From assembly GCA_049274755.1 (NCBI GenBank), contig JBASTF010000206.1, positions 22,682 to 86,681 of the forward strand: a DNA stretch of 64,000 nucleotides. Reading direction: 5' to 3'. Positions 43,423 to 64,000 of the stretch are shown here, piece after piece. Position 1 is the first letter of the stretch; each line of letters begins with the position of its first letter. The DNA comes from Rubrivivax sp. (lineage in GTDB: Bacteria > Pseudomonadota > Gammaproteobacteria > Burkholderiales > Burkholderiaceae_C). A model generated the notes under the pieces. It searched no databases. It worked only from the letters and a program-made list of their open reading frames with translations, and had not been told where the DNA came from. Made by a program: the position numbers and the translations under genes.

Positions 43423-43644
43423 GTGATTCGATTCAAGCTGGGTGAACAGCTGGAGAAGAAGCAGTTCCGAGACTCGCGGCGCATCACGCTCCAAGAGGTC
43501 TCGGACGCGACCGCAATCAACCGCTCCACCCTCTCAAAGCTCTTGAATCAGAAGGGCTACAGCACGGGTACAGATGTCCTGGACCGGCTGTGCAGCTACT
43601 TCGGGTGCGGCATCGCTGACCTGGTGGAACATGTGCCTGAATGA
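43423..43644 (+). CDS. Small XRE/Cro-type HTH regulator (73 aa)
   Basis: GTG 43423 in ORF 43282..43644. 'ITLQEVSDATAINRSTLSKLLNQKGYSTGTDVLDRLCSYFGCGIADLVE'. Confidence 0.7.
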   Translation: MIRFKLGEQLEKKQFRDSRRITLQEVSDATAINRSTLSKLLNQKGYSTGTDVLDRLCSYFGCGIADLVEHVPE

Positions 43645-46700: not shown

Positions 46701-48100
46701 AGCGACTGATGGCCCGCCTGCTGCGCGCGCGTAAGGACGGGCAGAAGGTCATCGTCTTCTCGCAGTTCACCGACACACTGGCCTACCTGGGCTCCGTTCT
46801 GCGCGCGGCAACAGTGCTCGAGCGCAACGAGTGGAAGACCGTGCTGCGCGAGCTGTCGGCTGACGCGGGCCACACCGTGTCGAAGCAAGAGGTGCTCGAC
46901 CTGATCAGCCGCATCGCCGTGGTGAGCGGTGAGACCGAAGAGCGGGACGCCGTCATCCATGCCTTTGCGCCGTTCTACCGGCTGGGCCCATCCCGCCCCC
47001 GCATTGCCGGAGCGTCGCCCACAGAACAGCAGCAACTTGACGCGCAGTGGGTCAGCGGCTGGACGCAGGCACTTACGCACCCCACTGACGTGCTCTTCGC
47101 GACTGACGTTCTTGCGGAGGGCGTCAACCTGCAAGACGCGGCGCTGCTCATCAACTTCGACGTTCACTGGAACCCGGTGCGCATGATCCAACGGGCGGGC
47201 CGCATCGACCGCAGGCTGAACCCTGCTATCGAGGAGGCAACCAGCTTCCCGGACCTTGAAGAGCTGGCGCGCACGCTGGGTGCGGAGCCACCGCGCTACT
47301 GGTGGCATGCCCACCCCAGCACTGCGCCCACAACGGTGAACCTGCTCCTGCCCGACGAGCTGGAGGCCGAGCTGCAGCTCCGCGAGCGCATCGCCAACAA
47401 GACACTCGCCATCGACTTCACTCTGGGCCTGGAGCAAGGCACCGGCGCCGAGGCCGACTGGATGGCTGAGTACCGCTACCAAGGCGTCTCGGCACTCAAC
47501 GCCTGGCAGGGCGACCGGGCGATTGAGCAGATTGCAGGCTACCTACAGCGCCTGCGACGGCTGATGACTGAGCGCGGCATAGAGACCGAGTGGCTTACCA
47601 AATGGAACGGCTGGCTGAGAGAGGTCGGTGGCGAACCCGAGCACGCCATCTTGGCCTGGGCACAGCTTGGCCGTAAGGGTGGAGAGGCCAAGGAATACAC
47701 GCGCCAGATCCAGCCGAGGCTCGTTGACGGCGTTCCGCATTGGCTGTGGACGGCAGAGAAGCCGGTCGAGTGGAGCAAGAACTTTTGGCTGGTGCTTGAC
47801 AGCAATACGCATCCTGCCGCGACACGCAAAGACCTCGGCTTCACTGAAGACGCGTCACGCCCCATCGCCGCAGAAGATCTGTTGATGGCATCTCGTCGAG
47901 TGATCGAAGGGGGCGTTGCCATCGAAGAGCTTGGCCGCGAAGTGGGTCGCCCCTTCCAACAGGGCGCGTCGGCCATTGCTGCAGGCGTCTTCGGTGAAGA
48001 TGACCGTCGAGCGATCCAGATCAGAGGGTTCCGAATACTCCAGTTGCGTCATGCCGACATCACGGCAACCACACAAGATTTCAGGGAGAAAGCATGCTGA
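43709..48100 (+). CDS. SNF2-family (SF2) helicase/translocase with an unrecognised ~330-aa N-terminal extension
   Basis: 1463 aa. '[13 protein letters not shown]' (motif I), '[12 protein letters not shown]' (II), '[15 protein letters not shown]' (III), '[14 protein letters not shown]', and '[40 protein letters not shown]' (V/VI). The start (GTG 43709 or ATG 43793) is uncertain. Confidence 0.9.
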
Positions 48101-51100
48101 ACAAGGACGACTTCATACGCCACATTCTCGGCGAGGCTCCTCAGGCGAAGCCGAAGGAGGAGCCGGAGGAGTCCAGCCACATCGAAGGCTTTGACTTCGC
48201 CGACGACGCGCAGGACGCGGACGCCGCGGAGGACACCCGCTTCGTTACGCCACTCCTGCAGGCTGGATTCGGCGACGGCCAAGGCATACCCCGAGCGACT
48301 GTCATTCGCAGCACAGACGCCGTCGCTCGCCACATCCCCGACGAGGTGCGCTACTGGCCCAAGACGCCCACTCGCCCCCACCACACTCTGCTGATCGAAG
48401 CAAACCTGACGCACCGGGAACTGCTGGCCATTCCGGCCTTCAGGTCTCGTCAACTGGCCCACCTTGATATCGCCGAAGACGCCGTGGCACGCCTGGTGGC
48501 CGAAGCATTGGAGGGGTTTCAGCGAGGCGCAGAAGGTATGGACGCCTCAGCGCTCAAGGGCCTGAAGCACGAAACGCTTTGCGTGGTCTCGATCGTCGAC
48601 GAGCGCGAGGGTCACGCGGGCCGCCTGGCGTGCTTCGGCACGTTCAACGCCAAGACCGAAGGTCTGGAAACCTTCTTCTTGACCGAACACGCCCGCACTT
48701 GGGACCGCGCAGACGCGCGCGAGCGCCTGAGCCTCATCTACGAGAGGCAATTCAAGAAGCTCGGCGAGGCCAACTGGCAGGATGCCTTCACGACGACTGA
48801 CGAACGACAGCAGGCCGAGAATCTGCTGGAGGTGTGCACGAAGAAGACAGTCCTGGAAAAGGACGTGCAGGAGTCGATCCTCGACCTCCTGGATACCATC
48901 GCGCGTGGCTTTGGCCTGCGAAAGAAGGCAGACGCCCAGCGACGCTTGCGAGCGTTCCCCTTGCCGGGCGAGCACGACATCGGCATCGACGCCGAGGAAC
49001 GCGACAGCAAGTACGGAGGCACCAATCCGTTCAGCGGTGTCACGCTGCGTGATGACCACAGCCGCCTTCTCGGCTACATCGTCTACCCGCTCAAGACAAA
49101 GTCTGACGCCACGAAGTTGCGCCAGCACCTGGAGTTGAACAACCGCTTCCACAACGTGCTGGTCGTCTACCCAGACGTGAACCAGGCCAGCATCGAGCTG
49201 TGGCAAGGGCGTGAGCAACTGACCGGAAAGCTGCGCAGAGGCCAAAGTCACAAGGACGCTGCCGACGTCGTCAACCTGCTTTCACGCTTCTTCGTCGTGA
49301 GCAAGGCAAAGGTGCGAAATCCGGCGGAATTGGCACAGGAACTGGCTTACCGCGCCCGCTACCTCAGGCGACTTGCCCTCAAGCAACTCGAAGACGAGCC
49401 GGACGAAGGACCCCTCCGTAATCTGTACAACGCCTTCAAGCTAGCTCTGGTCCATGACCAGGACGAAGACGAGTTCGCCGACGCGTTCGCACAGACCATC
49501 ACTTATGGCCTATTGACCGCGCGTTGGCTTGGTAACGACCAGCTAGCGAAGACGGGTGATCGATTCACGAGGCAGAACGCGCTCAAATACCTTCCCGCGG
49601 CCAGCCCCTTCCTCAACGACCTCTTCAAGTCCGTACTCTCACTCAAGCTCGACGAACATCGCGGCCGGCTGCTCTGGCTTGTAGATGACGTCGCTGACCT
49701 CTTGGACCGTATCGACGTGACTTACGTCTTCGGCGCTGGCGATAAGGGCTCAGACACCGCGACCGACCCAGTGATCCACTTCTACGAGCCATTCCTGGCG
49801 GCCTACGACAAGGAGTTAAAGAACAAGCGGGGAGTCTTCTTCACGCCTCGTCCAGTAGTCTCCTACATCGCCCGTAGCGTACACGAGCTCTTGCAGAGGG
49901 ACTTCGGCCTCGAGGACGGCCTCGCGTCGATAGACACGTGGAGCGATGTAGCCAAACGTATTGACGGGTTCGAGATCCCGCAAGGCATTAAAGGCAGCGA
50001 TCCCTTCGTATGCATTCTTGATCCGGCAACTGGCACGGGGACCTTCATTTACGAGTGCATCCAGATCATCGAAAGCACGATGAAGGAGCGCTGGTGCCGT
50101 GAAATTGGTGTGACCTCCTGGCACGATGAGCGCGTGCTGAGCCGCTGGCGAGAATACGTTCCGGCAGCACTGTTGCCAAGAATTTTTGGATACGAGCTAA
50201 TGATGGCGTCCTACGCTGTCGCACACCTCAAGCTCTCATTCAAGTTAGCTGAAACGGGCTGTGAACTCAGTCAAGGCCCCGCAAGCCGGCTAAATGTCTA
50301 CTTGACAAACAGCCTGGAATCACCGACGAAAGCACAAGGCGAACTCGAAGGCATTTCCCCGGCGCTCGCGTCGGAGGCAAGCGCCGTCACAAGCATTAAG
50401 AGCCGCCGGCGCTTCACAGTCTTGATCGGCAACCCGCCATACGCCAACTATTCAGCCAACCTGTCTCCTGAGTCTCGAGCAATCGTCGATAAATATAGAA
50501 CCTTCAGAGGCACTCCGATCCGGGAGAGAAATCAGCTTCAATTCGAGCGCAACCTTCAGGATGACTTTGTAAAGTTCATCGCAATTGGAGAAGAAGAAAT
50601 ACGTCGAAGTAGTGCTGGAGTGCTTGGCTACATTACGAACGCAACCATGCTTGCATCGCCGTCTCTTCGGGGCATGCGGGAGCACCTCAGCAAGACATTT
50701 ACCGATCTATTCGAATTCCACTTGCACGGAGGCGTCAACGAAATCCCCGAAGACTCCCTGAATGATCAAAACGTGTTCGATATCGCGCAAGCGGTCGCCA
50801 TTCACATCCTTGTTCGCCATCCCAAAGCCAAGCTCGCGGCAACAACACCTGTCGTGCATTTCTCAGAGATGTGGGGTCCTCGACCACAGAAATACTCGCT
50901 CCTCGCGGCTGGTTCTGCGTTGACCACGGAATGGCACAAGGTCCAACCCGACCATGAGAACTGGGCCTTCGTGCCGCATGACACTTCTGCAAGTCACGAG
51001 TCACTTCGAGTTGACGACATCTTTGTACGCTTTGGGGCCGGGATAAAAACAAATCGGGATTCCGTCGCAATCGCCTTCGATAAAGACAATCTACTTGAAG

Positions 51101-52038
51101 CCATTAGCGAGTTCGACTCGCAAGTGGCCCCACGCGATGCCAGCAAGTATGTGCAGCCGATCTTGTACCGCCCGTTTGACAAGCGTGTCATCTTCTATCA
51201 CGAAGATGTCGTTGCTAGCCGGTCGCTCCCCACGATGCAGCATGTTCTGGCAGGTCCAAATCTTGGGCTCATCGCATCGAGTACCTGGACTTCACCAGAT
51301 CGATTTAGTGTAAATGTTTCGCGACTAATGGTTGAGATGAAAACCGGAACGCACGACCGCGGAACAACATATTTTCCTCTTTATCGCTATGAGAGTATTC
51401 TCGGTGGTGCGGCACAGAAGACTGCGAATCTACAACCTGATTTTCGGAAGCGCTGGGAGAGCCTTACAAGGACCCGCCTTCTCGCGAAGGGCCATGGCGA
51501 CCTTTCGCAGACAACCGGCCCTGAGGACGTTCTTTACTGGATATACGGCCTTAGTCATTCGCCGGAGTACAGGCGCAGAAACCGAGCGGCGCTTGCCCAG
51601 GGATTTCCGATAGTGCTCTTCCCGAAGACAACCCTTCTACTGGCAGATCTTGTCGCGATTGGCAAGCGCCTTGCTGCGATTCATCTCTTCGAAGAGCTTC
51701 CTGCCGCCACATCTGGGTCATTTATCGGTGAGCGGTATCCTGAGGTCGAAAAGATCGCCTATGCAGATGGCACCGTTTGGATTGATAGGCTGCGAACACG
51801 TGGTTTCGCTGGTGTGTCAGAAGCGGTGTGGGCGCTTCACATTGGAGGGTATCCGGTCTGCGAGAAGTGGCTGAAGGATCGAAAGGGTCGGAACCTATCG
51901 AAGGCGGAAGTTGACCACTATGTGAAGCTAATTGGGGTTCTCGAAGAGACGCTTGAGCTAATGAAGCAAGCTGACCTTTCAATCGCGAAGCACGGTGGAT
52001 GGCCTGATGCCTTCGTAATGCGGGCGAGCACATCATGA
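48094..52038 (+). CDS. Large N6-adenine DNA methyltransferase, PglX / Eco57I / type-ISP-like, with a type-ISP-style C-terminal domain
   Basis: 1314 aa. '[18 protein letters not shown]', '[16 protein letters not shown]', '[16 protein letters not shown]' (SAM motif I) and '[12 protein letters not shown]' (NPPY motif IV). The C-terminus has '[16 protein letters not shown]...[20 protein letters not shown]'. No nuclease motif was seen. Confidence 0.9.
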
Positions 52039-53927
52039 GCACCTCAAAGGCGTGGGCAATTGACATCAGCCTGGTGACTGATTTTGCGGCGGACGCTACT
52101 GGGCCTGTGCAGCTCTCGCTGCCATCCAGCCTCCATCTGGAGGCTGGAGCGCTTGTCGCGCTCATGGACATGGGGCGCTGCTGTGGCCTCGGCACCGTTC
52201 GTGAGCAGTCGCTGGTTGTCCTGCCAGTTAACTTCGAGCCGAACCTGCTCGTCAGCCCACAGTACGAACCGAAGGAACTGCAGGTAGAGGACCGCATCAA
52301 GTTGTTCGGACACGACGAAGCGCATCTTCGTCGGATGTTGGGCTCCATCGCCATGGCTCCGACGATGCACGCCATCGGGATGCAGAAGACGGCGGCAACA
52401 AGCAGCCCCCGCTACTGGAAGATCGCCCCGGGTCGAAACGGCATTGCCTGGCCAGAGTGGCGAAAGCGTGGCATCGCCGCCATCGGCTGGCCGGACCTGG
52501 GCGATGTCTCCACACTCTCAGAAGACGATTTTCAAGCGCGCTCGAAAGCCAAATACAACAAGGACAAGCGCAACGAAGGGCCGTATCAGGTGTGGGTGTT
52601 CCACGGAATCAAGCCCGGCGATCGAGTTATTGCCAACGACGGTAGGTCATCCATCCTTGGGATTGGCACTGTCACCGAAGGCTACCGATATCGGCTGGGT
52701 GAACATACCGTCGAGGGTGAGGACTTTGCGCACCAGATCACGGTGAAGTGGGACGACACAACAACGCGCGACATTGCAGATCAGCCCGACTGGTTGCGCA
52801 CCCTTCGCGAGCTGCCGAGGGAGCGGTTCGAAGCGCTGGTCGGCGGTGAGGGAAAAGTTCCGTTCTCGGTCACCGCCCCAAGCAACATCATCCTCTTCGG
52901 CCCGCCAGGCACTGGGAAGACGTACAACGTGCGGCGGCGCGCGCTCGAGCTGCTGGGCGACGCTACAGCGGGGGATGCACCGAACGACCACGTGCAGGCG
53001 GAGTGGGAGCGGCGGCGCCAGGCGGGTCAGATCGTGTTCTGCACGTTCCACCAGGCGTTCGCTTACGAAGAGTTTGTCGAAGGGCTGCGCGCCATCACAG
53101 ACGAGGACAGCAACGTCCACTACCGCGTCGAGCCCGGCATCTTCAAGCGCATCGCTGCAACCGCGGCACAGCAACGGAAGGACGCCTTTGTGCTCGTCAT
53201 CGACGAAATCAACCGCGCCAACATCGCGAGGGTCTTCGGTGAACTGATCACGCTGCTCGAGCCAGACAAGCGCCTCGGCAACGCGAATGAGCTGCGGGTA
53301 CAGCTTCCGTCGTCGAAGGAGTGGTTCGGTGTGCCACCCAATCTGCACGTCATTGGCACGATGAACACGGCCGACCGTTCCATTGCCTTGATGGACGTGG
53401 CGCTGCGCCGCAGGTTCACCTTCGAAGAGATGATGCCCGACGCCAGCGCCTTGAGCGATGCGCTTGCCGAAGCGAAAGTTGAGGCGCCGGTGCGCGCGCT
53501 GGTCATCAGCGTGTTTGTGAAGCTCAACGAGCGCCTTCGCTTTCTGTACGACCGCGAGCATCAGATCGGTCACGCCTATTTTTTGGGTGTGCGCTCGCTC
53601 GATGATTTGCGGGCCGTCTTCGCTGACCGCATCCTGCCGCTGCTGCAGGAGTACTTCTATGGGCAGTGGGACAAGGTTGCTCTGACGCTGGGCTACCCGA
53701 TCAAGGCGGACGGCACGCCGAAAGAGGTGCGGAGTTCAGAGCATCCGAACGGTACGTTTCTCACCACGCAGAAGCTAGACGACAAGGCCGTGCTTGGCTT
53801 TGACCACGACGACTATGTCGACCAGGTGGTGTGGGATGTGCACCCGGCTTTCCGGCCACGTGGCAAGCAAGAAGACTCCTGGCTGCAGCAGGCCTTCGAT
53901 GAGCTGGTGGGCGCCAAGGTGGCCTGA
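52035..53927 (+). CDS. mcrB: McrB-like AAA+ GTPase with an N-terminal ~250-aa extension (possible PUA/EVE-like reader)
   Basis: 'IILFGPPGTGKTY', 'VLVIDEINRANIARVFGELITLLEPDKR' and 'VIGTMNTADRSIALMDVALRRRFTFEE' (NTAD GTP-specificity motif). The N-terminal segment is 'YWKIAPGRNGIAWPEWRKRGIAAIGWPDLGD'. Confidence 0.88.
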   Translation: MSTSKAWAIDISLVTDFAADATGPVQLSLPSSLHLEAGALVALMDMGRCCGLGTVREQSLVVLPVNFEPNLLVSPQYEPKELQVEDRIKLFGHDEAHLRRMLGSIAMAPTMHAIGMQKTAATSSPRYWKIAPGRNGIAWPEWRKRGIAAIGWPDLGDVSTLSEDDFQARSKAKYNKDKRNEGPYQVWVFHGIKPGDRVIANDGRSSILGIGTVTEGYRYRLGEHTVEGEDFAHQITVKWDDTTTRDIADQPDWLRTLRELPRERFEALVGGEGKVPFSVTAPSNIILFGPPGTGKTYNVRRRALELLGDATAGDAPNDHVQAEWERRRQAGQIVFCTFHQAFAYEEFVEGLRAITDEDSNVHYRVEPGIFKRIAATAAQQRKDAFVLVIDEINRANIARVFGELITLLEPDKRLGNANELRVQLPSSKEWFGVPPNLHVIGTMNTADRSIALMDVALRRRFTFEEMMPDASALSDALAEAKVEAPVRALVISVFVKLNERLRFLYDREHQIGHAYFLGVRSLDDLRAVFADRILPLLQEYFYGQWDKVALTLGYPIKADGTPKEVRSSEHPNGTFLTTQKLDDKAVLGFDHDDYVDQVVWDVHPAFRPRGKQEDSWLQQAFDELVGAKVA

Positions 53928-55306
53928 TGCTGCGCGTCACCATCCTTGAGCGCGGCCGCATCCTGCGGTCAGACTCCGATGCTGACAGTGTCGATCTCGG
54001 GACGCCCTCGCGCCGGGTGTTGCCCCAGCGCTTGTACGACAGACTGTTTCGCATCGAGGGCGCGCGCGAAGACCGCCGGGAGGCCGCCGTCTTTCGCTGG
54101 CGCCGCAACCACTGCCTTGTTGGCCCTTGGGTCGGCGTGATGCAGATCCCAGGTCTGCAGCTCGAAATTCTGCCCAAGACCGACGATGGCGGTGCGCAGG
54201 ACAGCGATCAGGAAGTGCGCGACACCCGCTGCAACCTGATGGAGATGTTGCTGCGCGGGGGCCTGGGCGCGGTGCGCGCGCGTGGCGTTGCCGACCTCGC
54301 GCTCAAGCGCGGCAACCTGCACGACCAGTTGGTCGACACCTTCTTGGACCGAACGCTCTTCGAACTGCGGCGTGGGCTTGACCGCGGCTACGCCACGGAA
54401 GAAAGCAATCTGGCAACCCTGCGCGGCAAGCTGGTGCTGTCGCGGCAGGTGGCGCTGAATTCGGCGCAGAAGGCCCGCTTCTTCTGCCGGCACGATGTGC
54501 TGACTGAAGCGACGCTCATCTCAGTGCGGCTGAAGCAAGCTTGTCGCGTGCTGGCTGCCCGTGCGCTACCCGCACCGGTGCTGGTCAAAGCACAGCAGGT
54601 GCTGGCGCTGCTGGACGACGTTCCTGACCTGCCTTTCCGCCACCGCGAGCCCGACCCCGTGTTCACGCGCCAGAACGAGCGCTTTGCCGACATCTACAGC
54701 TTCGCCTGCATGCTGCTTGAAGGCCAGGCGCCCGATGCCCGCAGCGGCGAAGTAGAGACCTTCTCGCTGCTGTTCGACATGGAGCAGGTGTTCGAGCGCT
54801 ACATCGCTGCGTTCCTGTCCACTGAGGTGATGCAGCGCCTTGACGATGCCACTCTCTACCCGCAGGCCAAGGGGCATCGCTTCAGTCTGTACCGGGACGA
54901 GCAAGAGGCCGTGCTGCGCATGGCCCCCGACCTGCTGGTGGTGCATGAAGCAGTGGGCGGCAAGAAGACACTCATCGTCGATACCAAGTGGAAGCGGCTT
55001 TCCGAAGAAGACGGCAGCCGCCCAAGCAGGGCTGACCTGTATCAGCTGTACGCCTACCTCCACCGGTACGACTGCGAGCGTGCCTACCTGCTGTACCCGC
55101 GGGCGGCGGGCGTGGCCGTGCGCGACCTGCAGGCGCTTGCGCGCCACGCCGGCGACCATGTCGGGACCGTGGGCGTTCGTTTCGTAGACCTGAACCGGAA
55201 GCTGTGGACCCGCGAGGGCAAGAGGGCGCTTGCCGACGAGTTGGCGCTGATCATCGGTGAGGGCCTGGGCCTTGCCGAGGTAGCCACTGAGGAGGCTGCG
55301 GCGTGA
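53927..55306 (+). CDS. mcrC: McrC-like PD-(D/E)xK nuclease subunit
   Basis: 459 aa. 'LFDMEQVFERYIAAFL' and 'PDLLVVHEAVGGKKTLIVDTKWKRL...DLYQLYAYLHRY'. The start overlaps the mcrB stop. Confidence 0.85.
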   Translation: MLRVTILERGRILRSDSDADSVDLGTPSRRVLPQRLYDRLFRIEGAREDRREAAVFRWRRNHCLVGPWVGVMQIPGLQLEILPKTDDGGAQDSDQEVRDTRCNLMEMLLRGGLGAVRARGVADLALKRGNLHDQLVDTFLDRTLFELRRGLDRGYATEESNLATLRGKLVLSRQVALNSAQKARFFCRHDVLTEATLISVRLKQACRVLAARALPAPVLVKAQQVLALLDDVPDLPFRHREPDPVFTRQNERFADIYSFACMLLEGQAPDARSGEVETFSLLFDMEQVFERYIAAFLSTEVMQRLDDATLYPQAKGHRFSLYRDEQEAVLRMAPDLLVVHEAVGGKKTLIVDTKWKRLSEEDGSRPSRADLYQLYAYLHRYDCERAYLLYPRAAGVAVRDLQALARHAGDHVGTVGVRFVDLNRKLWTREGKRALADELALIIGEGLGLAEVATEEAAA

Positions 55307-57894
55307 CCCGCGCTTCCTTTGACGCGATCGTCACGCGCTTGGCTGCGTCGCCCACGGCGTGCAGCGAGCGCGAGCTGCTCGAACCTTCGCACTGGAGCCT
55401 GGGTGAGGATGCGCGGCTTCGCGAAGACATGCGCTTTCGGGAAACGCCTTGGGGGCAGTGGATGCTCGCCGATGACCTGGTGGCGAATGAGGCGGTCTAC
55501 CGCTGGCTCCATGCTGAGAAGCGTGGGTCGGTGTCACTCGGCGCCGCGCTGGAGCGCGCCGCCGAGGTTTTCGGGCGCAAGTGCGTCTTCTGTACCAGCG
55601 ACTCGCGCTTCGTGCTGCGCCGTGATGAAGTTCATCTGGCGGCTAGCGAGCTGTCTCGGCAGCCAGTCGTCGAACGTGAAGTGGGTGAGCTTGAGAAGTA
55701 CCAAACACACCTGCCGCTCCACAGCCTGAAGGCGGCAGCGGCCTCCGCGCCTGCCGGTGAGTGGGGGGCTCGTGCGCAAGTCCAGGTGATTGAGACGCTA
55801 GGTTGGGTGCGGATCGCGCTGCCCGGGCGCAAGCTCAGTGATCGCATGTTCATCGCCGCCGTCGAAGGTCACAGCATGGACGACGGCAAGAGTGGTCTCG
55901 TCGATGGCGGCTACGCGGTCTTCGAACTCTGGCCCGCGGGCACCAAGCAGAACTTGAACGTGCTGGTGCGGGGAACGTTTTCAGACCCGGAGACCGGCAG
56001 CTACGCGGTGAAGAAGTACGTTGCCGACCAGCGAGACGCAGAGGGTCACCACCACAGGATCTCACTCGTCTCGCTGAACCCGGACAAGGAGCGCTTCCCT
56101 GACATCGAGCTGCTACCCAGGAACGACGACGACATCATGGTCGTCGCCAAGGTGGTGCAGGCACTGGCGCCAAGCGACTACGAGCGGCGCCCGCTGGCCA
56201 GACGGCGTGTGGGGCGTCGAAACCTCAGCGGCAATGAGGTGGGTCTCCGCATTGCCCGTCGGGCCGCTTCGTTTTTCGACGGCGCGGGGACCGAACCTGA
56301 CGACGAGGACACCGACACAGCGCACGATACAGGCTGGCGAACACGGCTTGTGTGCCTGGACGTTGCCGCGGGCGGGCTGCATCTGGAGGTGGGCCCGCTA
56401 CACGGTCTTCCTCTGTTCGCGAAGAAGCTTCGGGTCGTGGGTGGCGCTTGGGACGCCTATGTGTTGGCTGCCAATGCCAAGGCACGCCCCACGCGCGTGC
56501 CGGTACGGCCAGGAACAGGCCCCTGGAGATGGGAAGCGGTCGGTTTCGAGGACGAGCATGAGCTTGGCCTTGGGCAGCTTTCGCACAGCACGCTGGACGA
56601 AGCATGCCCGACCGTGTTCCGCATCGACGCCGATGGTCTGGGACAGCACATCACCAGCCAGACGCTGGCTCTCGGGCAGGCGTATCACCTGCTCTTGCCG
56701 CCAGGCCTTGCTGGGGACGTCGGCACGGAATGCGGCGACGGCTGGCGGATCTGGTCGCTCGATCTCGCTGAGCAGGTCTCAACTGCGAAGCGGCAAGTTC
56801 TGTCCTCGCTGGGCCTCAGTGTTGGCGAGGCGTCTCCACGTCTTCAGTGGGCATTGGCTTCCGCCTCGGCGTGGCAGATGAGTGCACGAGGGGCGAGCTA
56901 CCCTGTCTTCGAGGCGGGCTTGGAGCTGCTGGTGGATGTTGGCGGCATCGCTCCGGACGAGGGCGACGAGACTGTGCTGTTCCTTCATGGTCCGTCTGGT
57001 GCCGATCGCCTCAAGATCTTGGGCAATGGGCTTGTATCGCTGGGTTGCCCTCAGGTGGGGCGTTGGGCTTGTGCGTTGATGCCGGGGCTGACCAGCGTGC
57101 CCGCTGCATGGCTCTTCTTCGAGGTCGCAGAGAGCGCAACTGGGCACATCGGTGCTTCGTGGACTGCCAGTGCGCCAAGCGGCCTGTCTTCGCTGGAGGC
57201 AACGGCGCCGCCGGGCTGGCCCGTCTCGCTGCGATGGCGAGTTGTCGCTGCGCATGAGGAGACGCTCGCAACGCTGCACGGTAACGATGACCACACGGTG
57301 CCTTTGGAAGGCATCTTCGCGATCCTGGAGGCCCGTGCCGCCCGCGCGCGCCTTGCCGATGTCATCGTCGACTTCCGCGAACTAGGCAGCCGCGCGATCG
57401 CGCATGATGGCCGAGCTTCGTTGAAAGACGTGCGTGAACAGCTGGCGACGCTGTGGCAGCAGCGGGCTGGCCTCGTGCATAGCCGCGCAGGGGACTGGCT
57501 GCAGCTGATGAAGCCTTGGTTTGAGCCGATCACTGCCCTGTTCGGCTACGGCATTGCTTCGCTCGAACTACCATCAGCCGGCACCGAATCGCACGACCTT
57601 GCTGCATGGCTGCTCACGGTCGACGAGCGGGCCGACGGCGTCATCATCCGTTCGCCATCACGCGTTCTCGTGCTGACGAGTGACGTTGATGCAGCGCTTC
57701 GCGAGCACCGTGCCTGGATCGACAACGCATGCGCAGCGGTAAAGGTGCGCGATGCGATCGTCACTGATGGAGCCAGCTGGACAACCCATCGCAAGGGCAG
57801 CCAACAGCTCAAGCAGCACCAGTGGAATCTCGATGATGTCATCGCAAGCGACAACATCGACGAGATGCTGGGCGACCTCGCCGAGGGTTTGTAG
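55303..57894 (+). CDS. Unknown 863-aa protein: N-terminal region + LexA/S24-peptidase-like domain + 516-aa shared C-terminal module
   Basis: GTG 55303 overlaps the mcrC stop (GTGA). 'THLPLHSLKAAAASAPAGEW...AAVEGHSMDDG...GSYAVKKYV' shows Ser...Lys dyad spacing typical of S24. The module from 'RLVCLDVAAGGL' (nt 56344) to the end is paralogous to 60861..62408. Confidence 0.8.
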   Translation: MTRASFDAIVTRLAASPTACSERELLEPSHWSLGEDARLREDMRFRETPWGQWMLADDLVANEAVYRWLHAEKRGSVSLGAALERAAEVFGRKCVFCTSDSRFVLRRDEVHLAASELSRQPVVEREVGELEKYQTHLPLHSLKAAAASAPAGEWGARAQVQVIETLGWVRIALPGRKLSDRMFIAAVEGHSMDDGKSGLVDGGYAVFELWPAGTKQNLNVLVRGTFSDPETGSYAVKKYVADQRDAEGHHHRISLVSLNPDKERFPDIELLPRNDDDIMVVAKVVQALAPSDYERRPLARRRVGRRNLSGNEVGLRIARRAASFFDGAGTEPDDEDTDTAHDTGWRTRLVCLDVAAGGLHLEVGPLHGLPLFAKKLRVVGGAWDAYVLAANAKARPTRVPVRPGTGPWRWEAVGFEDEHELGLGQLSHSTLDEACPTVFRIDADGLGQHITSQTLALGQAYHLLLPPGLAGDVGTECGDGWRIWSLDLAEQVSTAKRQVLSSLGLSVGEASPRLQWALASASAWQMSARGASYPVFEAGLELLVDVGGIAPDEGDETVLFLHGPSGADRLKILGNGLVSLGCPQVGRWACALMPGLTSVPAAWLFFEVAESATGHIGASWTASAPSGLSSLEATAPPGWPVSLRWRVVAAHEETLATLHGNDDHTVPLEGIFAILEARAARARLADVIVDFRELGSRAIAHDGRASLKDVREQLATLWQQRAGLVHSRAGDWLQLMKPWFEPITALFGYGIASLELPSAGTESHDLAAWLLTVDERADGVIIRSPSRVLVLTSDVDAALREHRAWIDNACAAVKVRDAIVTDGASWTTHRKGSQQLKQHQWNLDDVIASDNIDEMLGDLAEGL
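56344..57891 (+). repeat. Copy A of the 1548-nt (516-codon) paralogous coding module
   Basis: It aligns in register with 60861..62408. Shared anchors include RLVCLDVAAGGL, RPGTGPWRWEAVGFE, GWRIWSLDL, GRWACALM, ATAPPGWPVSLRW, DFRELG, HDLAAWLLT, SPSRVLVLT and KVRDAIVTDG. Confidence 0.85.
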
Positions 57895-60800
57895 TGGCGC
57901 CGTCCGACTATGAGTCGCTCAGCGACGAGAACAAGCGGCGCTACGGCACCGACATCGGTCGTATCGGGCCCATGCTGTTGGCGGACCGGTACGACGACCG
58001 GACGCACTTCATCTTCGAGCTGCTGCAGAACGCGGAAGATGCGATCGGCCGACGCGGCGACGCGGTCGGGCCAAGAAAGGTCACCTTCACGCTGACACCG
58101 GGCAGGCTGACGCTCTCGCACTTCGGCCGACCGTTTGACGAAGCCGATGTACGCGGCGTCTGTGGCATCGCCGAGAGTACGAAGGACAAGCACTCGATTG
58201 GCCGGTTTGGCATTGGCTTCAAGTCGGTGTACACGTTCACGAGCCGCCCAGAAGTGCACTCAGGCGAAGAAGACTTTGCCATTGAGAACTACGTTCTGCC
58301 GAAGGCGGTTGAACGCTCCACTCGCGAACCAGGCGAAACACAGATCATCCTGGCCCTGAGGCCTGACGACCCGTCCGCCGAGCAGGAGATCGAACAAGGC
58401 TTCCAGCGCCTCGGCGCCGGTGCGCTGCTGTTCCTCCAGCACATCGACGAGATCAACTGGAGTGTGGCTGGCGGCGCCTCTGGCCTCTATCTGCGGGGCG
58501 CACCCGTCCCACTCGGACCGAATGTTCAGCGCATCACTCTGATCGGCCAGGATGGCGACCAGAAAGAGGTCGATCAGCACTGGCTGGTCTTTCACAGCGA
58601 GGTGGCGACTGAGAACGCGGACAAGGTGGGGCGGGTGGAGGTCGCCTTCTCCTTGGCACGTCACCCAGAAGTCTCTGAGCGATGGACAGTCCAGCCTATC
58701 GCCGTATCTCCGTTGGTGGTGTTCTTCCCCACGGTGGTGTCGACGAATCTCGGATTCCTTGTCCAAGGGCCCTATCGAACGACGCCGAGCCGGGACAACA
58801 TACCCCGCAGTGATCCGTGGAACCAGGGGTTGGTGAAGCAGACAGCCCGCCTCGTCATCGACGCGGTTCGGTGGATGCGGGACAACGACATGCTGGACAC
58901 GACAGCACTGCGCTGCCTGCCGACTGACAGAACGAAGTTCTCGGAAGGCGCGATGTTTGCGGCCGTGTTCGATGCGGTGCGGCAGGCGTTCCTTGAGGAA
59001 GCGCTGCTGCCCCGCTTCGACGGTGGTTTCGTGTCCGCCCGCCAAGCGAGGTTGGCGCGCACGCAGGAGCTGAGAGAGCTGTTCAGCGCCGAGCAGGTTG
59101 CGTTGCTGTTTGGCACCCAGGGAAGCGCCTGGCTGTCGGGCGACATCACACAGGACAAGGCCCCGGAGCTGCGGCGGTATCTGCTGCAGGAGTTGAAGGT
59201 TCCAGAGGTGACCCCCGAGCAGATCGTGCCCAGGCTTGGTAAGGAGTTTCTCAAAGCGCAAACAGACGAGTGGATCGCAAGGCTGTACGCGTTCCTGGAT
59301 GGCCAGAAGGCCTTGTCCGAGCGAGTGGCCGCGGTGCCCTTGGTCCGCCTCGACAACGGCACCCATGTCGTGGCCCGAGTTGCAGGCCGCGCGCTGGCAT
59401 TTCTTCCGAGTGCCATCGAGACAAGCTTTCCCACGGTGCGGCGCGCCGCCTGTGCAACCCCTGCGGCCCGCAGCTTCTTGATTTCGTTGGGGCTCACCGA
59501 GCCAGATCCTGTCGATGACGTGATCTGGAACGTTCTGCCCAAGTACAAGCGGACTCGGGCCGAGAGCGAACAGGTCGACTACGCCGAAGACATCACCCGA
59601 ATACTCAAGGCCTTTGACACCGATTCGAAGGCGCAGCGGGAAAAGCTGCTCGGGGCACTGCGCGAAGCGCCGTTCGTGCAGGCGCTTGATACCGGCAGTG
59701 GGAAGCGCTCCGCGTCAAAACCAGGAAACGTCTACATCGCCACCGATCGACTGAAGGCCTTGTTCGCAGGCGTTGATGGCGTGCTGGTCGTCGATGATGA
59801 GGTCGACAGCCTTCGAGGCGAGCCCGTACGTGACCTGCTGGTTGCCTGTGGGGCCAGTCGCTACCTGGCTCCGAAGCAGATTGCGTCAGCACTGAGCACC
59901 GAGGAACTTATTCAGATGCGCGTTCGTGCCGGCCTGGAACGGGCAACTTGGGCGCACCCGATTGAGGACTTCACGGTACGAGGGCTCACCGAAGTGCTGG
60001 GCACGCTGAACATTCTGCCGCCAGAGGAGGCTCGCGCGCGAGCTGAAGTTCTCTGGGAAGCCCTTGCGGATCTGGAAGGGCGGGGAACAGGGTCGTTCTA
60101 CGGCACATACCGCTGGGGCTTCTCCCAGCAGACCAAGACCGTGCGGTTCGACGCCGCTTTCGTTCAACAGCTCAGGCGCGCCAGTTGGATTCCGGATGCC
60201 ACTGGCGATCTGGTTCGGCCGGAACTGGTGACGTTCGACTCGTTGGGGTGGAAGCCGAATCCGTTCTTGCTGGACAGGATTGCCTTCAAGCCGCCGATCA
60301 TCGATCAACTGGCGAAGCAGGCCGGCATTGAGCCAGCGGCACTGGATCTGCTGAGAAAGCTTGGCATCACCAGCCTCGCAGACCTTGCGCGCATGGGAAT
60401 CGCCAGCAAGCCCGCGGTCTCGCCAACGGTTGAGGACACGCCCGGCGGCGAGCCACACAGCAGCGATGCAAATGCGTCGGCGGCAGAAGATGCGCCCGAC
60501 TTGCCCGATGAGAATTCGGATGAGGAACGCACCGACGCCGACAGCAAGACACCAAGCCCCAGTACCGAATCCGATCCTGATACTCAGCTGAAGGACAAGG
60601 CCGACAACGAACCCGATGACGCGAATGATCGCGAGACGGAAGCAAGAGTCACCAGAGCGCCCCGCCAAACCAGCCCTGTCGTCAATCGGCAAACCAAGGC
60701 AACGACGGGTCAGAGGAAGCGCAAAGTCACCGGCCGTGATGGTCTCGCGGAACAGGCGGCCAGACTTGGCCGTCGTATCACCGCTTTCTTCGGTGAGATG

Positions 60801-62411
60801 GCAGATGCCGAAGACGATGAGAACGTTGACAGCCCGCCGCAGAGTTCGGGCTGGCAGGCACGATTGGTGTGTCTCGACGTCGCCGCCGGCGGTCTGCAGC
60901 TCGAGATTGGCCCACTGGATGGGCTGCCGAGCTTCGTGAAGAAGCTGCGCGTCGTAGGTACGGACTGGGATGCCCTCGTGTTGGCGGCGAATGTAAGGCT
61001 GCGCGCCAGCCGCACCCCAGTTCGCCCGGGAACAGGGCCATGGCGATGGGAAGCCGTTGGTTTCGAGGAAGAGCAGGACCTGGAGCTGGACAAGCTGGCG
61101 CTGAACGCACTGGGAGCGACCGAAGTTCTCGTGTTCCGCCTCGATGCGGATGGTGCGGGTCGACCCGTGGTGAGCAAGACGCTATCACCCGGACAGACAT
61201 ACCGACTCCTGCTTCCTCCTGGCCAGAGCAGCGATCTGGGTGTTGAACTCGACGCTGGCTGGCGCATCTGGTCGCTCGACCTGGCGATGCCATTCACATC
61301 GTCAACTAGAGAGCTTCTTGCCTCACTAGGGCTTGGCTTGGGTGAATCCTGGCCACGACTCGACTGGGCTGTTGTCCCGGCTTCTTCATGGCGCAGTAAC
61401 GCGCGTGGAGAGAGCTACCCGATTTTCGAATCAGGAACAGAACTGTTCGTCAACCTGAGCGGTGTTTTGCTAGAGGACGGCGACGACGCGGCGGTATTCA
61501 TGCATGGCCCAGCTACGACGGAGCAGTTTCCCGTTACCTCTGATGGACTTGTGTCCCTTGGCAAGCCCGCTGCTGGACGGTGGGCCTGTGCGCTGATGCA
61601 CTCTCGCACTAGCGTGCAGACCACCACGCTGGTGTTTGAAGTCTCACCCAGCGGGGTAGAGCACGTTTCCGCCATGTGGGCCGTCAGCGCGCCAACAGGG
61701 CTGGTCGAGATCGAGGCAACTGCCCCACCCGGCTGGCCAGTGTCGCTACGCTGGAGTGGGCTGGCGTCAAAAGAGGAGTCTCTGGCGACCCTCTACGCGG
61801 ACAACGATCGAAATATCTCCTTCGAGCGCGTTCACCCACTACTGCTGGCACGTGCTGCGCGCACACCCGTTGCCGATGTGGTAATCGACTTCCGCGAGCT
61901 GGGTCGACGCCTGATCTCGCACGATGCCCGCGCGAATTTGGCGCAGCTTCGCGAGCAAGTCTCCATGTTGTGGAAGCAACGCGCGGACCTTGTGCAAGCA
62001 CGGTCGGGGGCGTGGCAGCTTCTCATGCCTGGATGGTTCGAGCCTGTTGTGAGCCGCTTGGGCTATGGGGTCGAAGCGCTCACACTGCCTACTGATATGG
62101 ATGCGCCACACGACCTGGCAGCGTGGCTTCTCACCATCGATGAGCGCGAAAAGGGGACGATCACCCGCTCTCCATCGCGCGTTCTAGTCCTGACCACCCA
62201 AATCGACAGTGTGATGAGTGACCAGCGCGAGTGGATCGACGCTGTCTGCACTGCTGCAAAGGTGCGGGATGCGATCGTGACCGACGGCACGCGCTGGACC
62301 TGCCATCGCAAAGGCGATCGACAAATCAATCGGCGGGGCTGGAATCTGGATCACGCCGCCGAACTCGGCATCATGGACGAGATGCTGAACGATCTCACGG
62401 AGGGCTTGTGA
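57894..62411 (+). CDS. Unknown 1505-aa protein: sacsin-type GHKL ATPase head + large middle region + acidic linker + 516-aa shared C-terminal module
   Basis: GTG 57894 overlaps the previous stop (TAGTG). 'HFIFELLQNAEDAIGRRG' (Bergerat N-box) and 'IGRFGIGFKSVYTF' (G2 box). Nt ~60400-60850 form a D/E/S/P-rich linker. The C-terminal 516 aa are paralogous to 56344..57891. Confidence 0.85.
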   Translation: MAPSDYESLSDENKRRYGTDIGRIGPMLLADRYDDRTHFIFELLQNAEDAIGRRGDAVGPRKVTFTLTPGRLTLSHFGRPFDEADVRGVCGIAESTKDKHSIGRFGIGFKSVYTFTSRPEVHSGEEDFAIENYVLPKAVERSTREPGETQIILALRPDDPSAEQEIEQGFQRLGAGALLFLQHIDEINWSVAGGASGLYLRGAPVPLGPNVQRITLIGQDGDQKEVDQHWLVFHSEVATENADKVGRVEVAFSLARHPEVSERWTVQPIAVSPLVVFFPTVVSTNLGFLVQGPYRTTPSRDNIPRSDPWNQGLVKQTARLVIDAVRWMRDNDMLDTTALRCLPTDRTKFSEGAMFAAVFDAVRQAFLEEALLPRFDGGFVSARQARLARTQELRELFSAEQVALLFGTQGSAWLSGDITQDKAPELRRYLLQELKVPEVTPEQIVPRLGKEFLKAQTDEWIARLYAFLDGQKALSERVAAVPLVRLDNGTHVVARVAGRALAFLPSAIETSFPTVRRAACATPAARSFLISLGLTEPDPVDDVIWNVLPKYKRTRAESEQVDYAEDITRILKAFDTDSKAQREKLLGALREAPFVQALDTGSGKRSASKPGNVYIATDRLKALFAGVDGVLVVDDEVDSLRGEPVRDLLVACGASRYLAPKQIASALSTEELIQMRVRAGLERATWAHPIEDFTVRGLTEVLGTLNILPPEEARARAEVLWEALADLEGRGTGSFYGTYRWGFSQQTKTVRFDAAFVQQLRRASWIPDATGDLVRPELVTFDSLGWKPNPFLLDRIAFKPPIIDQLAKQAGIEPAALDLLRKLGITSLADLARMGIASKPAVSPTVEDTPGGEPHSSDANASAAEDAPDLPDENSDEERTDADSKTPSPSTESDPDTQLKDKADNEPDDANDRETEARVTRAPRQTSPVVNRQTKATTGQRKRKVTGRDGLAEQAARLGRRITAFFGEMADAEDDENVDSPPQSSGWQARLVCLDVAAGGLQLEIGPLDGLPSFVKKLRVVGTDWDALVLAANVRLRASRTPVRPGTGPWRWEAVGFEEEQDLELDKLALNALGATEVLVFRLDADGAGRPVVSKTLSPGQTYRLLLPPGQSSDLGVELDAGWRIWSLDLAMPFTSSTRELLASLGLGLGESWPRLDWAVVPASSWRSNARGESYPIFESGTELFVNLSGVLLEDGDDAAVFMHGPATTEQFPVTSDGLVSLGKPAAGRWACALMHSRTSVQTTTLVFEVSPSGVEHVSAMWAVSAPTGLVEIEATAPPGWPVSLRWSGLASKEESLATLYADNDRNISFERVHPLLLARAARTPVADVVIDFRELGRRLISHDARANLAQLREQVSMLWKQRADLVQARSGAWQLLMPGWFEPVVSRLGYGVEALTLPTDMDAPHDLAAWLLTIDEREKGTITRSPSRVLVLTTQIDSVMSDQREWIDAVCTAAKVRDAIVTDGTRWTCHRKGDRQINRRGWNLDHAAELGIMDEMLNDLTEGL
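60861..62408 (+). repeat. Copy B of the 1548-nt (516-codon) paralogous coding module
   Basis: See copy A. The length is identical and the anchors checked stay in register. About three-quarters of the first 57 residues are identical by my count. Confidence 0.85.
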
Positions 62412-63394
62412 TGCCGCTTTCGAACGTTTCCCGCGAGGAGGCAGCATCGCGACTTGTACAACGCCTCGGTAACCCGCCCGACTCGGTGGAGGCGCTGAGC
62501 GATCTGCTTCGACAGGAGGTGCATGCGCGCCAGCACGCACCCCGAGCGGCGACGCTTTTGCGACTGGCTCGACTCTTAGCCCCGGCTGTGAGCGTCGATC
62601 AGCAACGCCTTGACGAGGTCTGCGATGCGCTCGAACGCGAAAGCGATGTGGTGTTAGCGCCTGGTGGCGTCCTGTACGCGACGCCCACAAGGGTAGTGAT
62701 ACTGAAGCACGTTGCCCGGATCTTCAGCAGCGTTCCGACGCGGCCTTTGGCCGCGGTACTCGGGCGGGAGATTGTGGCAAAGGGGCCCACTCGCACTGTC
62801 ACATCGTTCGATGGCCTGACCGATGCCGTTGCATCGGTGGGGGGCGCTGACGTGTCGCCAGAAGTCTGGGCGGGCATGGACCGGACGCCGCCAGCCGATG
62901 CTGCGTTGCTCGCAAAGCTGGACCAGCGCCTTGAGTGGCAAGCGGCAGGGGCCGGATCGCTTGAACGGGATGGCAGTCTCGAGTGGCGCACTTGGCAACT
63001 GACGCCCGAGGGCATGCGCTGGAGACGCAGCGCTGAGGGACGACTCTGGTGGGCGCGCACCCGTTTCGGTGGGCATCTTCGCGCATGGACATCGGGCGGG
63101 TCCCCAGCCACAGCGCCGTTCGTTGACCTGAGCGCGGACGACGCTGACCGGGCACGCTTCGCACTTTCGCGCGAGCTCCCCGGTGCGGCTGTGTTGCGAA
63201 TCGTGCGCTCTGGATCGCGAGTGGCGCTTGAACTCCCCGGGTGGCTCCCGCGCTCAGAGTACCGATGGCTCTCGCTTCACGCCGAGCCCACACCTGAAAC
63301 CAAGGGCCTCGGTTGGGAGATCGCAGCAGACGACGAAGCAATGATCACGAAGCCTCTGGTGGAACGTCTTGGACTCGCTGTGGAGGCGACATGA
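62411..63394 (+). CDS. Hypothetical protein (327 aa), coupled on both sides
   Basis: ATG 62411 lies within ORF 62231..63394 and overlaps the upstream stop (TGATG). Its stop overlaps the next start (ATGA). No motif was recognised. Confidence 0.7.
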   Translation: MPLSNVSREEAASRLVQRLGNPPDSVEALSDLLRQEVHARQHAPRAATLLRLARLLAPAVSVDQQRLDEVCDALERESDVVLAPGGVLYATPTRVVILKHVARIFSSVPTRPLAAVLGREIVAKGPTRTVTSFDGLTDAVASVGGADVSPEVWAGMDRTPPADAALLAKLDQRLEWQAAGAGSLERDGSLEWRTWQLTPEGMRWRRSAEGRLWWARTRFGGHLRAWTSGGSPATAPFVDLSADDADRARFALSRELPGAAVLRIVRSGSRVALELPGWLPRSEYRWLSLHAEPTPETKGLGWEIAADDEAMITKPLVERLGLAVEAT

Positions 63395-64000
63395 CGAGAC
63401 GGCAACTCACCATCAAGCCGAGCTGCATGCGGGAGATCACCACGTTCCCGTCTGAACGCGCTGCTCTGCTCTGGGAAAAGATCGATGCACTCGTATCAGA
63501 CCCACTCCCAGACGGGAAGGTGAAGAAGAAGCTCAAGGGTGCAGAAGGCGTCTACCGCATGCGCGTGACTGATCACCGCGTCTTCTATCGCTTTGGCGAC
63601 CACTGGATCAGCCTGCTCGGCATTCGGCGTCGCGCGGAAGACACCTACGACGGGGTACCAGACGGAACCGCGGAGGCCCCCACGCAGGTTGACACTGATG
63701 ACGATCTTGACGCGCTGATCGCGAAGGCGCAGCCGAAGGTCTTCGAATTCAAGACGACTGCGCCGGAAACGCCTCTACCCGAATCCATCACGAAGGAGCT
63801 CTTGCGTGAGCTCCGAGTGCCCATCGCGGCGGTGCCTACGCTCTTGCGCTGCGAGACAGAAGAGGCGTTGCTCGAAGCACCCGTGCCGCCTGATGTCCTC
63901 GGACGGGTAGTCGATCGGCTCTTCCCGCCAACCATTGATCGGCTCGACCAGCAGCCAGACCTTGTTGTCCCGTCCACCATGGACCTCGTCCGATACAAGG
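63391..64000 (+). CDS. 5'-partial gene: RelE/ParE-like N-terminal domain followed by a linker; it runs off the window and is probably the start of a large helicase-type protein
   Basis: My own translation from ATG 63391 is open to the window end. It reads 'MTRRQLTIKPSCMREITTFPSERAALLWEKIDALVSDPLPDGKVKKKLKGAEGVYRMRVTDHRVFYRFGDHWISLLGIRRRAEDTY...VVPSTMDLVRYK'. It is not in the ORF track because no stop lies inside the window. Confidence 0.7.
   Translation, partial: MTRRQLTIKPSCMREITTFPSERAALLWEKIDALVSDPLPDGKVKKKLKGAEGVYRMRVTDHRVFYRFGDHWISLLGIRRRAEDTYDGVPDGTAEAPTQVDTDDDLDALIAKAQPKVFEFKTTAPETPLPESITKELLRELRVPIAAVPTLLRCETEEALLEAPVPPDVLGRVVDRLFPPTIDRLDQQPDLVVPSTMDLVRYK

Follow-up and report, generated by a model that had tools for sequence, protein, structure and literature searches.

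The DNA analysed here (the window) is a stretch of 64,000 nucleotides (nt) from a Rubrivivax sp. contig, JBASTF010000206.1, and it encodes two adjacent large proteins that end in the same kind of C-terminal part, here called the module, behind completely different N-terminal heads. This locus raises the question of what the module is and which system its two carriers belong to. Protein A (863 amino acids (aa), GTG start, 55303..57894) consists of an N-domain, an S24 peptidase domain, a short junction and the module; protein B (1505 aa, GTG start, 57894..62411) consists of a sacsin/TmtA-type GHKL ATPase head, a disordered linker, a junction and a module. All operon genes described below lie on the forward strand. 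We found that the module is a genuine, previously undescribed domain family, and that the invariant neighbours downstream of it are DruD-like and DruE genes. Because of these neighbours, the system belongs to the Druantia kind and is not free-standing. On sequence grounds, the operon is best described as a putative Druantia type-I-related system in which a module protein would replace DruA-C, with an apparently acquired ARMADA-like UvrD helicase. It is of an already known kind, the defences of the Druantia type I lineage that centre on YprA/DruE, and in it the module is a recognisable new subunit replacing DruA/B/C beside DruD-DruE.

Residues R348-L863 of A and R990-L1505 of B are 516 aa each and align without gaps at 290/516 identities (56.2%), and each of nine anchor motifs occurs in both proteins at a constant offset of 642 residues, so that the equal C-terminal modules described in an earlier note on this DNA are confirmed. 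Over residues 300-863 of A and 943-1505 of B, BLASTP gave 306/565 identities (54%) and 70% positives with E = 0, and the gaps covered three positions, all in the linker. This pairwise alignment excludes low-complexity similarity, the doubt that the same note had raised. At the DNA level the two modules share 62% nucleotide identity and 39% identity at third codon positions, which, set against 56% ungapped identity of the proteins, indicates an old paralogy selected at the protein level.

The short conserved peptide that had been reported ahead of the module proved to be real and family-wide. This junction starts with GxRD(L/V)(S/T)S, continues as an amphipathic helix with RFF at its end and closes with an acidic linker. 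It stands before the module under every kind of head, those of ZorD, BrxHI-like and small-head proteins included, and brings the conserved unit to ~565 aa, a little above the earlier 516. In A, the junction covers residues 296-344 (56188..56334), where it reads GRRNLSG, then an amphipathic helix with FF as its last residues, then the acidic linker, and it is followed by the module at residues 345-863 (56335..57891). In B, a stretch defined by composition, first an Ala/Asp/Glu/Pro/Ser/Thr-rich linker and then the junction helix (~943-986), fills residues 810-986 (60321..60851), and the second module copy occupies residues 987-1505 (60852..62408).

No match to the module was found in Pfam (E up to 10), NCBIfam or PADLOC, and sequence and profile searches of the PDB with the module, full-length A and protein C, the product of the next gene, also gave no match. 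An AlphaFold2 model of the module built on a 128-sequence alignment (predicted local distance difference test (pLDDT) 84, predicted template modelling score (pTM) 0.50) showed about four immunoglobulin (Ig)-like beta-sandwiches (module residues 1-320) and, behind them, an alpha/beta domain (325-519). Foldseek against PDB and BFVD returned only generic tandem Ig-like arrays with template modelling (TM) scores <= 0.19, among them adhesins, Sidekick, complement macroglobulin (MG) domains and phage Big domains. The claim that the module falls in no known family thus held in every library searched. Among 80 diverse members, conservation falls mainly on Gly, Pro, Trp, Phe and Leu, with N391, D690, H701 and D822 (A numbering) as the polar exceptions. 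The conserved residues are thus mostly structural, and the effector role suggested for the module earlier is unsupported. Both the module and its DruD-like partner are missing from the annotation libraries and from the literature searched, so that such operons are scored as unrelated pieces: McrBC, an orphan 'TmtA', an orphan 'DruE'.

The family is rare. An exhaustive hidden Markov model (HMM) search of 1.84 billion cluster representatives, with E up to 1e-3, yielded 166 clusters, and among the best 150 of these 166 matches the module lies at the protein C-terminus wherever upstream sequence is present. A-type proteins (~863 aa) that are 58-77% identical occur in Myxococcota, Burkholderiales, Xanthomonadales and Chloroflexota, and no A homologue was found in the plasmid collection. 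To place the module in its gene neighbourhoods, we used a genome scan with one genome per species (18 loci) and an independent metagenome scan (17 loci). In syntenic loci, tblastn with the window proteins recovered the order SNF2-MTase-McrB-McrC-A-[B]-C (MTase, DNA methyltransferase), and the same pattern appeared in metagenomes, where L037, the closest relative of the window, has the full gene set. This upstream adjacency to McrBC, SNF2 and MTase genes is typical of one clade only, and other members lie in Zorya I, BREX 2 or DUF499 contexts. The earlier note had asked whether such genes always accompany the module and had missed the neighbours that are in fact invariant, the DruD-like and DruE genes downstream.

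The first of these neighbours is represented in the window by protein C (327 aa, ATG start, 62411..63394). Wherever the DNA continues past the module gene, the next gene is C-like, both in the genome and related loci (19/19) and in every such metagenome locus. A C profile aligned with three DruD sequences in hhalign at a probability of 97% (E 1.1e-10) over 315 columns covering both proteins. C matched nothing in PADLOC and NCBIfam at E 0.01, and its homology to DruD is therefore distant. The start ATG at 62411 overlaps the B stop by 1 nt. The mechanical open reading frame (ORF) of C begins 180 nt earlier (62231-62410), inside B in another frame, and this upstream extension looks conserved in close relatives only through B's own coding sequence; because of the divergent orthologues, we take 62411 as the true start. 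In two loci (L015 2236-5508 and L023 3934-7272) the DruD-like protein is fused to ~750 further residues, which contain an RNA-polymerase alpha-C-terminal-domain-like helix-hairpin-helix and, in L015, also a sigma-70 region 4 helix-turn-helix. There are hints in sequence of this kind that the DruD-like partner may work on DNA.

Past C, almost all loci encode a ~690-aa protein with ParE/RelE toxin and UvrD helicase domains. The window holds the first 203 codons of this ArmD-like gene (63391..64000), which are 87% identical to L037 and score 23.9 bits against Pfam ParE_toxin (cut-off 23); full-length relatives carry the UvrD domains. Since the gene is cut at 64000, the operon extends past the window end. 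Every locus long enough to show one has a DruE-like helicase downstream, a ~1940-aa protein with a full-length match to PADLOC DruE1 (1575 bits) and with DEAD, Helicase_C and MZB domains (Pfam).

Druantia type I reportedly consists of DruA-DruB-DruC-DruD-DruE (Doron et al. 2018). As reference loci we used Ralstonia pUW163a (L026) and P. putida pKF715A, which both carry DruA-B-C-D-E, as well as Nitrosococcus pNWAT01 (DruA, a 955-aa protein, DruD, DruE) and the E. coli pair YjiT/DruH + DruE. The module loci resemble type I in several respects: their DruE is 36% identical to Ralstonia DruE over the full length (~830 bits), a DruD homologue is encoded upstream of DruE, with the UvrD gene between them in most module loci, and the subunits further upstream are variable and of unknown function. 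They differ in that S24-, GHKL-, ZorD- or BrxHI-like-headed module proteins stand in place of DruA/B/C, that the ParE/RelE-UvrD helicase is usually inserted before DruE, and that in the main clade SNF2, MTase and McrBC genes further upstream are part of the same transcript. A tblastn search (E 1e-3) of the window and 42 module loci found no DruA, DruB, DruC or DruH, and no operon protein matched DUF4338 in Pfam. In Nitrosococcus watsonii pNWAT01 (L028 3780-14529), the 955-aa protein occupies the place of DruB + DruC, and the module profile aligned with its residues 275-851 in hhalign (probability 96.5%, E 7e-10, 503 columns); this protein has no similarity to Ralstonia DruB/DruC.

Druantia type III is similar in that a large protein without a known fold or catalytic motifs, DruH, is encoded just upstream of DruE. 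DruH has been proposed as a sensor or as a single-stranded DNA (ssDNA)-binding partner in Druantia III, and DruE is described as pairing with variable subunits (10.64898/2026.05.12.722862; PMC13192584); a functional link between Zorya and Druantia is also known (PMC13192584). However, the module-locus DruE scores 195 bits against type III DruE versus 830 against type I. Homology of the module or of C to DruH was rejected, with hhalign probabilities of 0.1-0.2% against a DruH profile made from four sequences (E. coli, Pseudomonas, Azotobacter and Marinobacter).

We also compared the operon with ARMADA type II, which is composed of ArmA (SNF2), ArmB (PglX-like MTase), ArmC (YprA helicase) and ArmD (RelE-UvrD helicase) (PMC12458937), and with whose type of cassette certain McrBC clades are associated, as reported in the CoCoNuT paper (PMC11090510). 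A module operon likewise combines SNF2, a large MTase, a RelE/ParE-UvrD protein and a YprA-family helicase, and the window-type UvrD protein shares 27% identity with Sakai ArmD (E 2e-37). On the other hand, the window SNF2 protein matches E. coli ArmA over 53 aa only and the MTase has no ArmB match; the UvrD gene precedes the YprA gene in module loci, and ARMADA lacks a module protein and DruD. The identification of the downstream helicase as ArmC was rejected, as it shows 26% identity over 366 aa (103 bits) versus ~830 bits to type I DruE. S24, LexA, sacsin or DruD components are not mentioned in PMC12458937, its supplements examined, or PMC11090510. Membership in DISARM, MADS or Druantia type IV (DruF/DruL) was dropped, the matches being only to generic helicase or MTase motifs.

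The heads of the module are exchangeable. Besides the N-domain + S24 head, which is the dominant form, and the GHKL head of B, the module carries an SNF2 + Mrr head in P0137 (1664 aa), an SNF2 head in P0232, Lhr-like DEAD helicase heads in P0157 and P0183, and a small unknown head in P0126; in some members the head measures just ~110-160 aa, and no enzyme is recognisable in it. In L018 (7802-12301), one 1500-aa protein joins an Lhr-like DEAD helicase, an S24 domain and the module, which indicates that an S24 domain can also be placed with a large enzyme on one side and the module on the other. The earlier interpretation was right in proposing different heads on a common module, and across the family these heads are S24, N-domain alone, GHKL, ZorD SNF2+Mrr, Lhr/BrxHI-like and small heads; pairing, a context defined by McrBC and an effector role were not supported.

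Some of these module proteins are bona fide ZorD (Zorya I) or Lhr-like helicases in the BrxHI position (BREX 2), with the module at the C-terminus and a ~340-aa gene following. In L022 (763-18903), a complete Zorya I operon ZorA-ZorB-ZorC-ZorD ends in a ZorD (PADLOC E 1e-163) with a C-terminal module, and a C-like gene (hhalign probability 100%) and a DruE-like helicase come after it. A second, likewise complete Zorya I operon, L024/L025 (L024 4923-14982), also has a ZorD with the module, and its contig ends just inside the next gene. Such a module-bearing ZorD operon is a physical link between Zorya and Druantia. On a JGI contig, PglX-PglY-PglZ-x-BrxD precedes a module-bearing Lhr-like helicase, after which come a putatively DruD-like gene of 342 aa, a DruE-like gene and a PDDEXK gene. 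In L019, a DUF499 ATPase gene comes first, then P0126, and C-like, UvrD and DruE-like genes follow in this order. Canonical ZorD (~900-1200 aa) and BrxHI have no module, and the heads of window A and B are unrelated to both. The fusions of the module to ZorD and to the BrxHI-position helicase appear to be unreported in the literature searched.

These fusions bear on how defence systems cooperate, as in the case of Zorya with Druantia. We consider it possible, at rather less than even confidence, that the module is a general adaptor that wires sensors or motors of other immune systems onto a DruD-DruE effector core. The parts borrowed would then be ZorD from Zorya, a BrxHI-like helicase from BREX, a GHKL ATPase of the Tiamat type and an S24 switch of the SOS type, a list that we put forward equally tentatively. 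If true, the adaptor would be physical, genetically encoded evidence of how distinct defence systems come together in one machine, and the A/B pair of the window would amount to two inputs with one output. A single adaptor domain that ties Zorya, BREX, Tiamat-like and SOS-like components to Druantia would surprise a specialist, and the ZorD, BrxHI-like and TmtA-like fusions give direct, testable hypotheses of cross-system coupling.

The head of A is of the dominant kind. Its conserved N-domain, residues 1-135 (55303..55707), lies ahead of the S24 domain, has a CxxC (C94, C97) and invariant residues, and shows a helix-helix-hairpin pattern in a low-confidence AlphaFold model of full-length A (12 sequences, pLDDT 45.6); judging from this model, it is probably a winged helix. 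The same N-domain also sits directly on the module, without S24, in ~700-735-aa proteins. Residues 136-295 (55708..56187) are a LexA/UmuD-type S24 Ser-Lys peptidase domain with a HLPLHSLKAAAAS motif ahead of it. This assignment, which bears out the one made earlier from the letters alone, is supported by the relatives: Peptidase_S24 was matched by 19/56 diverse family members (best E 4.3e-11), and A is 32-73% identical to diverse relatives across the S24 region. The catalytic Ser191 (GHSMDDG) and Lys237 are each conserved in 43/46 S24-bearing members and are invariant among close A orthologues (A1).

Upstream of the S24 core, the motif HLPLHSLKAAAAS.P(A)GEWG is conserved, with A147 present in 41/46 and S148 in 40/46 members; A151-G152 is not conserved outside the main clade. 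The HLPLHSLKAAAAS motif resembles the LexA cleavage region, LPLVGRVAAG, and in a pairwise A-LexA alignment the GxSM motif alone was placed reliably. Like LexA, UmuD and CI, A has an N-terminal helical domain, an alanine-rich site motif, a GxSM serine and a downstream lysine. It differs from them by ~570 extra C-terminal residues, the module, by a predicted scissile pair of Ala-Ser or similar versus Ala-Gly, and by an S24 score below the Pfam threshold. Homology of the A head to DruA, DruB, DruC, DruD or DruH was rejected by sequence comparison.

The head of B was likewise assigned correctly as sacsin-type GHKL. B scored 45.9 bits against Pfam SACS (cut-off 32.8) and 79.2 bits against NCBIfam P_loop_sacsin (cut-off 50), its residues 32-777 matched PADLOC TmtA with E 2.9e-50 at profile positions 71-850 of 1486 only, and its closest solved relatives are sacsin structures PDB 5v44-5v47 (E ~1e-3). 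Residues 1-809 (57894..60320) form a TmtA-like (Tiamat) GHKL ATPase region without the TmtA C-terminal part. The likeness to Tiamat covers the N-terminal ~780 residues of B with the sacsin-type GHKL ATP-binding region, whereas TmtA positions past ~850/1486, including the reported nuclease region, are replaced in B by the linker and the module; no nuclease or DUF3883 match was found in B with Pfam. In addition, Tiamat is a single-gene system, whereas B is one gene within a coupled multi-gene operon.

B is not a constant partner of A. By tblastn over the one-genome-per-species loci, B is present in L002-L010 and L013 and absent from L001, L011, L012, L014, L015, L017 and L018. It is confined to one clade, is missing from ~40% of the loci examined and is represented by one 50% cluster (P0129); the module does not generally occur in pairs. 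No B-type protein was listed in the protein profile searches (~120 sequences; 5 proteins for divergent-module queries). In a neighbour-joining tree of modules, the B modules form one clade (32/50 bootstraps) that is sister to the main-clade A modules, and window A and window B do not group together. On this topology, B arose once, when module and junction were duplicated and fused to a TmtA-like head, and has co-diverged with A since then. It was lost again at least once (L001), and never existed in a deeper clade (L011, L012, L015, L017).

How the parts work together can be proposed in outline. We know of no mechanism for Druantia type I beyond the DruE helicase. We give about an even chance to the reading that the module is a subunit for docking or sensor coupling, without catalytic activity, in a Druantia type-I-related anti-phage system. 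A and B would be paralogous subunits of a super-operon of SNF2, MTase, McrB, McrC, A, B, C, UvrD and DruE, and the module would act as the variable partner of the DruD-DruE core in place of DruA/B/C (or DruH). It may tether an exchangeable N-terminal input head to this core, or regulate the core. Homology, architecture, fusions and conserved neighbourhood are shown by the sequences, and physical docking onto DruD/DruE, the self-cleavage of A and the direction of signalling are what we infer from them. In A, Ser191/Lys237 would cut the protein itself near A147/S148 and detach the N-domain from the remainder, S24 plus module, making A a proteolytic switch whose trigger, by analogy with LexA, CI and UmuD, could be an ssDNA/RecA-type signal. 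Unwinding by DruE, cleavage by McrBC and the replication of a phage are each possible sources of such a signal. From B, the core would gain an ATP-driven DNA clamp or sensor of the MORC/sacsin kind, in replacement of the TmtA nuclease. The predicted LexA-like self-cleaving head would suggest a proteolytic on-switch in a helicase-based defence.

In favour of this proposal are the paralogy of A and B with their shared junction, the C-terminal position of the module, its exchangeable heads, the conserved DruD-like and DruE-like neighbours, the homology to the Nitrosococcus 955-aa protein, the structural character of most conserved residues in a beta-sandwich array, the gene overlaps, and the published pairing of DruE with variable subunits and link of Zorya with Druantia. 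Several observations weigh against it. The module aligned with canonical DruB at a probability of only 21% (E 1e-3) and showed no similarity to DruA, DruC or DruH. Residues 136-295 of A stay below the Pfam threshold for PF00717 (E 0.12, 12.6 bits, cut-off 23.3), and the putative cleavage site is Ala-Ser-like and not the classical Ala-Gly. The DruE gene of the window would lie beyond base 64000, its presence being extrapolated from L037 and 30 other loci. Finally, the conserved polar residues D690, H701 and D822 could mean a ligand-binding or catalytic site and not a pure scaffold.

A first alternative, which is compatible with docking, is that A and B hetero-oligomerise through the module and form a two-headed complex of S24 switch and GHKL ATPase, which would explain why the pair is kept. 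The two genes are adjacent with a 1-nt overlap, the B clade has co-diverged with A since a single old duplication, and the regions best conserved between A and B are the junction and the first beta-sandwich (conservation 0.77, versus 0.53 for the second and 0.48 for the third), all of which would fit such a complex. But many loci that are otherwise complete, among them L001 of the main clade, have no B, which indicates that A functions without B, and we consider the assembly a somewhat unlikely possibility.

The same conservation gradient can be read differently, because the second and third beta-sandwiches, least conserved between A and B, would suit diversifying recognition surfaces. The module itself would then be the infection sensor, recognising a phage protein or DNA structure as DruH may do, and the heads would be effectors or amplifiers. 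Beta-sandwich arrays are typical of binding modules, several heads are enzymes that fit as effectors (ZorD SNF2+Mrr nuclease, helicases, peptidase), and the Druantia III partner DruH is likely a sensor and binds ssDNA (PMC13192584; 10.64898/2026.05.12.722862). Nevertheless, conservation of the module across phyla, at 58-77% among A orthologues, is unusual under arms-race selection, the module has no sequence similarity to DruH, and the members with the smallest heads offer no recognisable enzyme as an effector. On balance we regard a sensor module as unlikely.

Still less probable, in our judgement, is that the C-terminal alpha/beta domain is an undescribed enzyme, such as a nuclease or phosphoesterase using D690/H701/D822, that serves as a common effector under different heads. 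In its favour are conserved positions (G695 80/80, H701 77/80, D822 72/80, D690 69/80), and in B the module stands where TmtA has its C-terminal half, which has been reported as a PD-(D/E)xK nuclease (bioRxiv 10.1101/2024.10.26.620412). However, no catalytic family matched in Pfam, NCBIfam, PADLOC or the PDB profile search, no enzyme was among the best 50 Foldseek matches per library with the whole module as query, conserved polar residues are very few for a 200-aa enzyme domain, and the operon already has effectors in McrC and, in relatives, DruE. That the A/B similarity is a trivial artefact of low complexity, recent tandem duplication or assembly error is next to impossible and was rejected by BLASTP, the module tree and the codon-position identities, as gap-free identity coexists with divergence at third codon positions, both module copies are separately conserved in many genomes and metagenomes, the module fold prediction is confident, and nothing was found in favour.

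Returning to the window, A and B are preceded in the operon by four genes. The first gene encodes an SNF2-family helicase of 1463 aa (43709..48100; Pfam SNF2-rel_dom and Helicase_C), with partial DrmD/DpdE/BrxH matches in PADLOC and NCBIfam and 71-86% identity in syntenic loci. The second encodes a Type IIG/ISP-like N6-adenine MTase of 1314 aa with a C-terminal specificity domain (48094..52038), which matched Pfam Type_ISP_C (E 4.9e-57), Eco57I and N6_Mtase, and PADLOC REase_MTase_IIG (E 2e-147). Its GC content stands out: GC is 0.534 at 50001-52000 versus ~0.65 around, and the dip covers the C-terminal Type_ISP_C specificity domain. The MTase is also only 36-39% identical in loci where the flanking SNF2 and McrBC genes are 75-85% identical, and this suggests swapping of target-recognition modules.

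The third and fourth genes encode an McrB-like AAA+ GTPase of 630 aa (52035..53927; AAA_5 E 9e-16; NCBIfam McrB E 2e-37, under the curated cut-off) and an McrC-like nuclease subunit of 459 aa (53927..55306; Pfam McrBC E 1.5e-60). With an McrB AAA+ GTPase and an McrC of the DUF2357/PD-(D/E)xK kind, the pair qualifies as McrBC type IV restriction, as divergent members because their NCBIfam equivalog scores fall under the cut-off. Residues 126-246 of the McrB-like protein matched PADLOC candidate-system models PDC-S02 (E 1.1e-15), and its N-terminal region is presumably the DNA-reading part. From SNF2 to C, successive genes overlap by 7, 4, 1, 4, 1 and 1 nt; the McrB gene overlaps the MTase gene as ATGA, and the start of the UvrD gene overlaps the C stop as ATGA. 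Overlaps of 1-7 nt indicate a single transcription and translation unit, and the earlier view of A and B as defence-island components in a translationally coupled operon is borne out.

The operon is immediately preceded, at 41738-43529 on the reverse strand, by an ORF of 158 aa and a gene for a 440-aa tyrosine integrase with Arm-DNA-bind_2 and Phage_integrase domains; no tRNA gene was found in the whole window, and no attachment site for the integrase was evident. Further to the left and on the same strand are three candidate defence or mobile-element genes, encoding a T5orf172-domain protein (40453-41292), a UvrD-like helicase with ankyrin repeats (1013 aa, 35022-38063) and an NYN + OST-HTH/LOTUS protein (33413-34135). 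The left part of the window also contains, on the forward strand, a 2092-aa ORF at 4296-10574 whose GC content at third codon positions (GC3) is coding-like.

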